This document shows positions 22,901 through 25,483 of a stretch of 64,000 nucleotides of DNA, piece after piece. The position numbers were made by a program, and so were the translations under genes. The first letter of the stretch is position 1, and each line of letters opens with the position of its first letter. Location: contig NKIB01012851.1 in the NCBI GenBank assembly GCA_002256025.1, positions 1-64,000 of the forward strand. The letters are read 5' to 3'. The notes under the pieces were generated by a model. It did no database searches. It was given only the letters and a program-made list of their open reading frames with translations, and was not told the origin of the DNA. Source of the stretch: Asterionella formosa. Its lineage: Eukaryota.

Positions 22901-23900
22901 TTAAGAGATCTTGTGAGCAAACTTACTGGTTTTACGAAATTCGTCATGATTATCTTCAAGAACAAGTAGTTGAACTCGATTCCACCATTTGCTTTGTTTA
23001 CCAGCAGTTTTTTCATTCAAGTTATTGTGTGTTGTAGGAACATGCAATTCCAGGCAGTCACCTTGCACTGTATGAGCAACATGATGCTTTGTGTCAGAAC
23101 CTACAAATTCAAAGTCACGATCACTGTCTAATAGTATATTGTGGAGCATACAGCATGATGTTAACACATTTTCGATGTGATCTGATCGATTCAGATTGTT
23201 CCAGTTTTTAAGGAAGAGCCATTGCCCTTTTAATATGCCGAAATTATATTCAATAACTTTTCTAACAGATCCACCGCCCATCATACCCCATGCGCATTCT
23301 TTTCCATCATGTTCATTGCCATATTTTGTTGGACAAATCAACACTGGCCATTGCAGGTACCCTCCATCACATATGAAATAGTAGCTTTTACATGTAAAAG
23401 ATGAATCTGCAGTGAGCACATTCCACTCTTGCCTGCCCAAAAATAATTCCTATCATGTAGATTGGAAAAAGCAGGATCAAACTTGACTATGTGTTTGTTG
23501 TTCCTTGTTCCTGGGTGTAGGTAGCTGATGGCATGATCAATCATATTCTTTTTAATTCATGAAAGCAAATGTATCTTCTAGCTAAAAGCTTGTCATTGCA
23601 AATTGGAAATGCTATGCTAATGCAGCCATGTATGGCTGTTGAGTTAGCATTGATGTTTAAGGGAATGAAATAATGTGCAGTATGGTTGTGATCCAGCATG
23701 TGCCTCATGCAGCAAGTGACTCCTGTATATAGCCTCTCTACCATATGAGTACCTAACAGCAAAATTGTAGCTCTTGCCTGCCTAATGGGAATGTCATTTC
23801 ATAGTTTCTGGCACTTCATCATAGAAGCCAGATTAGCACCAGCATCCAGCAGTAGCCAATGTTGTTTCATTGATCCATTATGCAACTGTGTAGTTGCAAA
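22901..23900 (-). pseudogene. PIF/Harbinger (DDE_Tnp_4-type) transposase pseudogene
   Basis: HPGTRNNK, CDGGYLQWPVLICP, SVRKVIEYNFGILKGQW, CCMLHNILL; frameshifts and stops. Confidence 0.85.
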
Positions 23901-24238
23901 CAATCAACGAACTAGAATTTAAAATAGATTAGCATTGATCCAAATGGACGATGCATTAAAGGACCTTGAATACTCAACGTGAACAATAACCAGTAATTGT
24001 GAGGTGCTTTTGCTCCTGTCCTTCACTTTCTGGACACCCGAAAATGTACATAATATATGTTATTCATTGTTCTAGAAAATCATGAATTGGGGCAGGATGT
24101 TGAAAACAGTGATTATGGGATCAATGTCTTGTTTTCAGCTTCGAATTTAAGACCAAACTTCTGATCTATAATTTCTAATTTCGGCACATGAACATGAACA
24201 GCATGTTCATTGGAGTTGATACAGTCAGGAAAAAGTTA

Positions 24239-24704
24239 TTACATGATTGAACATGCGCTATTCCCTGAACCTCCTCGTCGTTCAGAAATCTTGGCTTTTA
24301 GCTCTTGTATTATAGAGTCGAAGGATTTTGCAAACTTCGTTCTGTTTTCCAGTTTGTTGTAGTTCTGATCATGAACAAGTTTGTTACGGACTGTTGGCGT
24401 GCATTGGTGGCAAAATGAGAAAGTATTAATAGGTGGTGCTCGTAAGGACACCCCAATATATTTATATAATGGTGATTGTAGTCTACTCACCAGTCACTAA
24501 ATACCTCATTTGCTGGACAGCAGATGGACTCAGTCCAAATCTTTGTTCCGCATGTGAGATCTTGTCGTGCAATCCAACAGTTTTTCCTGATGGTGCTCCA
24601 AATTCACTCTCTAACAAAAATTCCAAATCCTTTGTAGCCCGAATGACCAATTCAAAGTCGTTGTCGTATATGCTATAGGATGTAGTAGAGTGAGAGGATC
24701 CCAT
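24239..24704 (-). CDS. 121-aa HEPN/DUF4145-like protein with N-myristoylation motif and C-terminal CaaX; exons 24704-24491 and 24390-24239
   Basis: A GTGAG...CAG intron joins two ORFs in frame (366 nt); MGSSHS start, RNKLVH (Rx4H), CSIM-stop end. Confidence 0.75.
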
Positions 24705-25483
24705 AGTATCCGTGTGATGACATGCCGTTCAAATGAAACGAAGTGGCTGACGCCGGATCGTGCATGGAAGAAATCGTAGATTATAACCATGAAAACAATA
24801 AAATTCACGATGTAGGGTCAGCATCAGTGGCATGTGAATAACGGTATACAACATACATATGATGCATGATACTCCGGAGTAGCTTTCATACAGATATACC
24901 GGTACCAGGGTACCTGTACCAGCAGCTGTTTTGGTGCATAAAAACCTAACATCGGTATCATTTTTTGAAATGTATCATTACCAGCAGGGTCTACCGGTAC
25001 CCACCCAACAACGTTCTTACCCATTCGAAGGTCCAGCAAAACACATTCTTACTTATCGGTATCTCATTCGATCACCGGACCTTCCTTCGTACCGGTACCT
25101 GATACATTGTCTATGTGGACCTGTGGACCCACAGAAGTCGGTACTGCTAACACGTCAATGTCTCGTGTCTCGTATGTACTGTACTATATGAGGAGCATAT
25201 TTATGCCAGTATATAAACTAAAACCAATACACATAGACTACCGAACCGGTATATGTATCAGGGAAAATTAAAATATGATGCGAAAGTGACGTTGCGTTAT
25301 TGAAGCACGTCAGTGATCAGACAAGTGTTCAAGTCGCTTCGCTCTGATATTTTTGTAGTACATACCACACCTACAACGACGGTGGGTCTATCTCATATCT
25401 TCATTTCGCTCACATCATTTTAGCACATCATTGTTTTCTCCCGCATCAACTAGTAATATACACCAATAGACAGCACAATAGCC

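Follow-up and report, generated by a model that had tools for sequence, protein, structure and literature searches.

A two-exon gene on the minus strand of the 64,000-nucleotide stretch of Asterionella formosa DNA analyzed here (the window) is real and expressed, and its spliced product is a protein of 121 aa that starts with MGSSHS, carries RNKLVH at residues 73-78 and ends with CSIM. With medium confidence, we favor the reading that this protein is a membrane-tethered homodimeric HEPN endoribonuclease, narrow or latent in its activity, which would act during upkeep or stress on RNA located at a membrane.

Forty-five GT-AG joins leave the reading frame open, and one of them matches RNA: contigs from all four RNA runs, which belong to four studies, contain the exact joint 24390/24491 at 99% identity or above and with no other differences. 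The four runs were picked among 14 listed freshwater and algal runs, and one of them is presumed to be RNA. The remaining GT-AG joins were ruled out by the RNA contigs. The 100-nt intron, the 121-aa product and the MGSSHS and CSIM-stop ends had all been proposed in the first-pass annotation, made from the letters alone, and all of them proved correct. RNA contigs cover the gene region from 24774 down to 23902, and the start codon of MGSSHS is the first in-frame ATG after a stop within this RNA-covered sequence (Table 1). The two ATGs of the leader open a 30-aa or a 16-aa frame that overlaps the main start and could damp translation.

Table 1. The gene, its predicted protein features and a neighboring element, with positions in the window.
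Feature	Positions	Strand	Description	Evidence
Gene	24239..24704	-	ATG at 24704, TAA at 24241-24239	
5' leader	24705..24774	-	two out-of-frame ATGs (24765, 24723)	RNA contig coverage
Exon 1	24491..24704	-	214 nt, codons 1-71 plus one base; putative myristoylation motif, linker, HEPN helix 2, insert carrying the GLH histidine, first part of helix 3	sequence, RNA contigs
MGSSHS	24687..24704	-	predicted N-myristoylation consensus	sequence; 81/85 and 99/120 relatives
N15-E28	24621..24660	-	start of helix 2, predicted dimer interface	alignment, P0025 dimer model
GLH	24567..24575	-	second conserved histidine (H46), helix 2-3 insert	alignment of relatives
Intron	24391..24490	-	100 nt, phase 1, GT-AG (GTGAGT...CAACAG)	RNA contigs
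Exon 2	24239..24390	-	152 nt; RNKLVH motif, putative helix 4, basic/Gly-Ser linker, CSIM, stop	
R73-N74-x3-H78	24371..24388	-	predicted HEPN Rx4H at the end of helix 3	sequence, orthologue model
CSIM	24242..24253	-	predicted CaaX farnesylation signal	Cys at -4 in 82/85 and 119/120 relatives
3' untranslated region	23902..24238	-	RNA contigs end at 23902-23965; true end not fixed by contigs	RNA contigs
Harbinger-type DDE transposase remnant	22904..23449	-	~800 bases downstream of the gene	Plant_tran, E 1.3e-8

The gene is present as a single copy within the window, where its neighbors are unrelated to it: the transposase remnant, the glycine-cleavage T protein (GCV-T) and XAP5. A degraded look-alike of exon 1 (P0087) was observed in a metagenome, with 71% identity over 49 aa and the same intron point; it is possibly a pseudogene copy and is absent from the window.

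Both ends of the protein carry putative lipidation signals. Farnesylation takes a C-terminal CaaX in which X is M, S, C, A or Q, and CSIM conforms to this. The available text of PMC4990929 gives MGxxxS/T as a myristoylation motif, while CSIM is the CaaX of prelamin A, which human FTase fully modifies in yeast according to the available part of PMC11152559, where prenylated proteins are put at ~1-2% of proteins. From the known enzymology, Gly2 is probably myristoylated and Cys118 farnesylated. The N-terminal linker of the relatives measures 8-34 residues (medians 13 and 11 in two sets) and lies roughly where a helix 1 would be expected. A polybasic stretch as a second membrane signal was considered and rejected, as it is not conserved; the mean net charge over the 15 residues before the Cys is +0.5 and +1.9.

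A search with exon 1 alone, a query that contains no RxxxxH and no CaaX, returned 112 relatives, 85 of which extend to the RNxxxH motif and share 36-64% identity with the spliced protein. Eighty-two of these 85 start with MG, 81 have Ser6 (81 MGxxxS) and 82 have a Cys at -4; the last residue of the CaaX in the latter is C in 40, S in 35 and M in 7. R, N and H were kept in 85/85 full-length relatives and in 120/120 profile matches, both sets favoring motif carriers. The joint conservation of Gly2/Ser6, Rx4H and CaaX anticipated in the first-pass annotation is therefore borne out (81/85, 85/85 and 82/85, respectively). Among the 27 motif-less relatives, 17 end their match right after LVT, which corresponds to the intron position in the window, as would be expected of unspliced gene calls; the position is common to many relatives.

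A profile built from divergent members matched 560 proteins, and since it was built largely from anchored proteins it favors this form. The best 120 of the 560 comprise 120 with RNxxxH, 119 with a Cys at -4 and 100 that start with MG as called (99 MGxxx[ST]), with 15 more having an internal MG before the domain. In an unbiased library-wide scan, 931 clusters were found at E <= 0.001; the motif is covered by 129 of the best 150, with R and H both kept in 123/129 and one or the other missing in 6/129. The GLH histidine is present in 84/85, 117/120 and 118/120 relatives in three sets. In the alignment of helix 2, N15, E18 and K25 are invariant, E28 is near-invariant and E18-x3-R22 is conserved.

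Members of the family are labeled hypothetical or 'DUF4145 domain-containing' in the databases. Those that could be named come from genera which we take to be diatoms (Cylindrotheca, Fragilaria, Cyclophora, Skeletonema, Ditylum, Thalassiosira, Nitzschia, Seminavis), a haptophyte (Chrysotila), oomycetes (Aphanomyces, Achlya, Saprolegnia, Bremia), green algae (Micractinium, Parachlorella, Tetraselmis), a cryptophyte (Rhodomonas), a chytrid (Globomyces), an ichthyosporean (Amoebidium) and a bryozoan (Bugula), in addition to Chromera. The doubly anchored form is thus named from five eukaryotic supergroups, which contradicts the earlier proposal of a domestication in a diatom: because the relatives run from diatoms to oomycetes, algae, a chytrid and a bryozoan, the family is no diatom novelty.

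Several variants of the family were observed. About 14 long forms lack the lipid motifs (P0143, P0148, P0151, P0158, P0159, P0168, P0173, P0176, P0179, P0187, P0189, P0211, P0215 and P0222); they measure 281-358 aa and have a signal-peptide-like start, a long leader and an intact RNxxxH, with no MG start, and are possibly plastid- or organelle-targeted. Two members, P0195 from a 137-kb contig of Bugula neritina (bryozoan according to the assembly label) and P0147 from Amoebidium, group together (95) and keep MG, RNKLxH and CaaX while the GLH histidine is missing. In P0126 the domain is fused to a multi-pass membrane region and in P0237 to an unassigned C-terminal domain; a Pfam search of these two fusions gave no match.

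According to the available part of PMC3710099, HEPN domains are defined by an Rx4-6H motif that terminates helix 3, with a polar residue (N, D or H) following the R, and by a conserved helix-2 acidic residue close to the motif (Ex3[KR]). The window protein has RNKLVH with the polar N after the R at the predicted end of helix 3, and E18-x3-R22 and E28 in helix 2. Folding was done on the orthologue P0025 as a stand-in for the spliced protein and on a Vibrio member, and both models display an up-down helical bundle with a helix 2-3 insert and without helix 1. The AlphaFold2 model of P0025 (pLDDT 79.4) has disordered ends and helices at 17-34, 46-57, 61-79 and 89-112, the third of which ends on the Rx4H motif. 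In a VIA-align search with this model, the first 11 rows were all HEPN-fold proteins (class taken mostly from PMC3710099 Table 1, seen in its available part, or from entry titles), with Z values of 8.2-9.2, a range that is not decisive for helical bundles and may be generic. The top matches were 2hsb (Z 9.2, rmsd 3.0, 103 aligned) and HepS (Z 9.1, rmsd 3.8, 112 aligned). Further matches were YggD, Roquin (which we count as a HEPN-fold protein), DrrA, HepT 5yep (Z 8.7), YutE, MtlR and the HEPN domain of sacsin. The Vibrio model (pLDDT 84.8) returned the same list of HEPN fold matches, with one at Z 8.8, rmsd 2.2 and 87 aligned. Its residue 1 aligns to residue 25 of 2hsb and residue 37 of 5yep, in helix 2 of 2hsb, 1wwp and 5yep; helix 1 thus appears to be absent, because the model aligns from its first residue to HEPN helix 2. 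At Z ~9, the likeness to HEPN structures is no more than suggestive.

It is highly improbable that the protein is an unrelated small helical bundle with a chance RNxxxH, or that its lipid motifs go unused. Such a reading would be consistent with several null results. Pfam matched 0 families on each exon frame of the window, a PDB sequence search with either alignment gave nothing useful, and Foldseek against PDB and viral structures gave no match at E <= 0.001, the best viral row being an Agrobacterium phage protein at E 0.05. De novo three-helix bundles also reached Z 6.7-6.8 against the Vibrio model. However, HEPN entries top two independent fold searches, the motif closes helix 3, in agreement with the definition of the superfamily, and the lipid motifs persist from supergroup to supergroup, with a hydrophobic tail in their place in bacteria. 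The HEPN-like fold and the placement of Rx4H suggested in the first-pass annotation are thus supported by the models. Foldseek, which it had called for, found no match at the above threshold; the VIA-align rows agreed with HEPN.

Profile matches to named families were weak. HepT_toxin was matched by 37/68 eukaryotic members (best E 0.0021), Cas13b by 8/68 (best E 1.5e-4) and DUF4145 by 19/34 bacterial members (best E 6e-4) and 7/68 eukaryotic ones; no family model passed its curated cut-off, where scores were shown. In the ESM Atlas, the clusters found were unnamed ones from diatoms, haptophytes, oomycetes and Pseudomonadota. The nearest named cluster there was DUF6548 (PF20185, Bacillota) at 0.89-0.90, which was also matched weakly by 15/68 and 6/34 members and may be a further HEPN-like sister family.

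A homodimer, assumed in the first-pass annotation, was also predicted for P0025. The two-copy prediction scored 0.67 versus 0.02 for the best control, a value that may reflect likeness to solved HEPN dimers and was obtained without a membrane; the runs agree on at least 95% of contacts with pLDDT of at least 84. The mark for a dimer was reached by 21/30 solved pairs and 0/23 single chains, and for eukaryotes by 17/29 and 0/30, respectively. The predicted interface comprises residues 16-30 and 77-84 and places H79 against K26 and E29 of the partner, which would account for the invariant residues in the alignment. By analogy, each H78 of the window protein would pack against K25/E28 of its partner, so that the two subunits would share a single composite site like other HEPN RNases.

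To trace the family in bacteria, GTDB genomes were searched with patterns of the conserved core only, yielding 255 stretches, the best 80 of which come mainly from Planctomycetota and Vibrionaceae. The eukaryotic and bacterial profiles match each other with an E of 1.7e-33 over 96 columns at 30% profile identity, supporting the bacterial kinship that had been proposed. The bacterial proteins have the conserved helix at their very start and a single hydrophobic helix at their end; this tail was found in 74/78 proteins read from the core-pattern loci, one of these being a false call in an FtsK fusion. Of 1,093 matches to the bacterial profile, the best 120 include 117 with a predicted C-terminal transmembrane tail, 0 with MGxxx[ST] and 0 with a Cys at -4. 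The predicted anchor is therefore of one type in bacteria and of another in eukaryotes, but both groups retain an anchor.

Among Vibrionaceae, 148/151 genomes have the gene, nearly always as a single copy, and the three genomes without it measure 2.1-2.6 Mb. All 41 Vibrionaceae loci compared are syntenic near rsmD-ftsY, with gap/epd, MFS, DUF2500, yhhN, marC, rsmD and ftsY as neighbors. In Planctomycetota it was present in 1/201 genomes, namely the centre genome itself, with varying neighbors; this sporadic distribution is not a housekeeping pattern. A search of six bacterial loci with Rfam revealed no RNA antitoxin and no riboswitch, and tRNAs in one locus (L002) only. In a Moraxellaceae locus (L046:4716-7082), an FtsK translocase carries the domain, its RNKVVH intact, as an in-frame insertion within its linker. 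A contig labeled Kordiimonas (L040) carries a near-identical Vibrio-type gene with a DUF2500 neighbor and is probably a bin contamination.

Twenty-five Vibrionaceae orthologues have much lower scores, and 16 of them were examined. The locus, first helix and tail are common to all 16, yet 15 have no complete Rx4H, 14 having lost the His and one the Arg, while the sixteenth has RQKVVH. Therefore, part of the family appears to be retained without catalysis, and counts based on the pattern overstate how well the motif is conserved. The same sequences (L086-L101, from the Vibrionaceae genomes G041, G130, G096 and others) also lost the GLH histidine and look like syntenic natural pseudo-enzymes.

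The retention of interface helix, tail and locus in these 15 motif-less orthologues speaks for an alternative that we regard as unlikely, namely that the window protein is a non- or weakly catalytic HEPN-fold adaptor. Such a tethered dimer would bind a protein, an RNA or a small nucleotide as MtlR does, with Rx4H serving in binding or structure. MtlR/YggD shares the top places of the fold search with other entries (Z 8.4-8.9), and this family keeps the Rx4H motif 60% of the time, as stated in the available part of PMC3710099; a solved MtlR-HPr complex is among the fold-search entries, judged by its title. However, R, N and H are present in all members of the two motif-favoring sets, and R and H in the 123/129 rows of the library-wide scan. 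In the models, a common site is faced by a second His and by the Lys/Glu of helix 2, which seems more than a scaffold would need.

The first-pass annotation had considered a role in antiviral defense or cell death. In this form, the protein would be a latent RNase, a membrane dimer or tetramer triggered by a viral protein or by membrane damage, which cuts tRNA or rRNA like HepS; we judge this to be unlikely as well. HepS, the second structural match, is an abortive-infection tRNase of the Salmonella Gifsy-1 prophage that combines sensing and killing in one HEPN protein and has no antitoxin (PMC13043305, available part), and the DUF4145-type HEPN of RAZR is a defense RNase (PMC13017515, available part). 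The sporadic occurrence in Planctomycetota, the presence on 9/72,556 plasmids and a distant copy in a phage contig would also fit. The latter copy (L081:4989-5414; 33% identity, RNRLVH, no evident anchor) lies between the antiterminator Q and the terminase in this one viral contig. On the other hand, the protein evolves slowly, as seen in the identities to the 85 relatives and to bacteria given above, it has one copy in the window and has no sensor domain. No antitoxin and no known defense family was found among 79 proteins from 16 bacterial loci, tblastn against 50,697 phage records gave no match, and PADLOC defense models gave short weak matches only, none of them for P0025. A classic defense role is argued against by the single-copy core status of the gene in Vibrionaceae, its one housekeeping locus there and the lack of an antitoxin. 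Together with the rarity on phages and plasmids, this weakly contradicts the defense proposal.

A quick tree of 87 rows and 90 columns (SH-aLRT support only, unrooted) was used to analyze the relationship between the eukaryotic and bacterial members. The window gene falls in a diatom clade (99) inside a group with Chrysotila (90), and a second diatom set groups with oomycetes and Rhodomonas. Fifty-two of 53 eukaryote-labeled rows lie on one side of a branch (81), and 51 of them do so at 94; 30 of these rows were labeled from architecture only. The tree is compatible with one entry into eukaryotes. Because it has 90 columns and is unrooted, we do not claim the direction of transfer or a single origin as shown. 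As a tentative and rather speculative extension, a bacterial tail-anchored HEPN dimer could have entered eukaryotes once and early, with myristoyl and farnesyl groups replacing the tail. It would have persisted in lineages ranging from diatoms to fungi and some animals, where a single gene would supply a sensor-effector cutting RNA at a membrane, possibly as a switch for innate antiviral or stress responses of microbial eukaryotes, with organelle-targeted offshoots.

Taken together, we favor a minimal stand-alone HEPN endoribonuclease that would form a homodimer and work at the cytosolic side of a membrane. Since Gly2 and Cys118 of each subunit are probably lipidated, the dimer would have four lipid anchors, compared with two transmembrane tails in the bacterial relatives. 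As there is neither an antitoxin nor a sensor domain, its specificity may be narrow, or its activity may stay latent until it meets a binding partner. The RNA cut could be one that arrives at the membrane, such as tRNA, or mRNA or rRNA of membrane-bound ribosomes, and the role could be upkeep or stress rather than that of a fast-evolving immune effector; activity control, substrate and role are the least certain parts of this proposal.

A full-text search of the literature outside subscription journals found no paper describing the family and none joining HEPN, myristoylation and CaaX, although the alignment file of PMC3710099 could still list members. The eukaryotic HEPN families in the available part of this 2013 survey (KEN/Ire1, Las1, C6orf70, Swt1, sacsin and some expansions) include no lipid-anchored stand-alone form. 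The retention of a 120-residue member in five supergroups, together with a bacterial twin whose way to the membrane is a different one, suggests that membrane position is essential to function. The protein offers a small testable handle on RNA turnover at membranes in algae and protists and on antiviral effectors of diatoms and other microbial eukaryotes, and the motif-less Vibrionaceae orthologues at the same locus serve as a natural control by which catalytic and non-catalytic roles can be told apart.

Among known systems, the HepT/HEPN-MNT type VII toxins (PF01934, NF047751; 5yep, 7ae2, 8xdj) are likewise small stand-alone HEPN proteins with RN-x3-H where helix 3 ends, and they share the predicted composite dimer site, weak profile matches and a fold match at Z 7.3-8.7. 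However, P0025 scores 14.2 bits against a cut-off of 60 for NF047751 and 12.7 against 23.5 for PF01934, and there is no MNT antitoxin neighbor, neither in the 16 bacterial loci nor in the window (DDE remnant, GCV-T, XAP5). In addition, the present family appears to lack helix 1 and carries predicted membrane anchors. DUF4145 (PF13643, including the HEPN of RAZR) is linked to the family by the public record labels and by the best Pfam E of 6e-4 among bacterial members. The V. nereis member, however, reaches 13 bits versus a cut-off of 23, and the present domain is not fused to a sensor, a restriction enzyme or a zinc finger. The group of membrane DUF4145 proteins described in the available part of PMC3710099 has an N-terminal WP-type TM helix, whereas the present bacterial relatives have a C-terminal tail. 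HepS resembles the family as a single-gene HEPN protein without antitoxin and as a tied top fold match, but it measures ~218 aa, is tetrameric and prophage-borne and has a trigger-binding sheet (PMC13043305, available part), whereas the present family is conserved, ~120 aa long and predicted to be anchored. AF0298 (2hsb) has an alternative His in the helix 2-3 insert (PMC3710099, available part), where the present family also carries a conserved His. The KEN domain of Ire1 and C6orf70 are eukaryotic HEPN RNases proposed or shown at a membrane (same source and part); they use transmembrane helices, in Ire1 with a kinase, whereas the present protein consists only of a HEPN core with two predicted lipidation signals, and close relatives of it are found in bacteria. 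MtlR/YggD shares tied fold matches and a mixture of motif-bearing and motif-less members, but has no sequence match to the present family, which lies outside mannitol operons and is predicted to be membrane anchored. The protein of the window has the sequence and predicted fold features of the HEPN superfamily, while it is not a HepT toxin and not clearly a DUF4145 protein.
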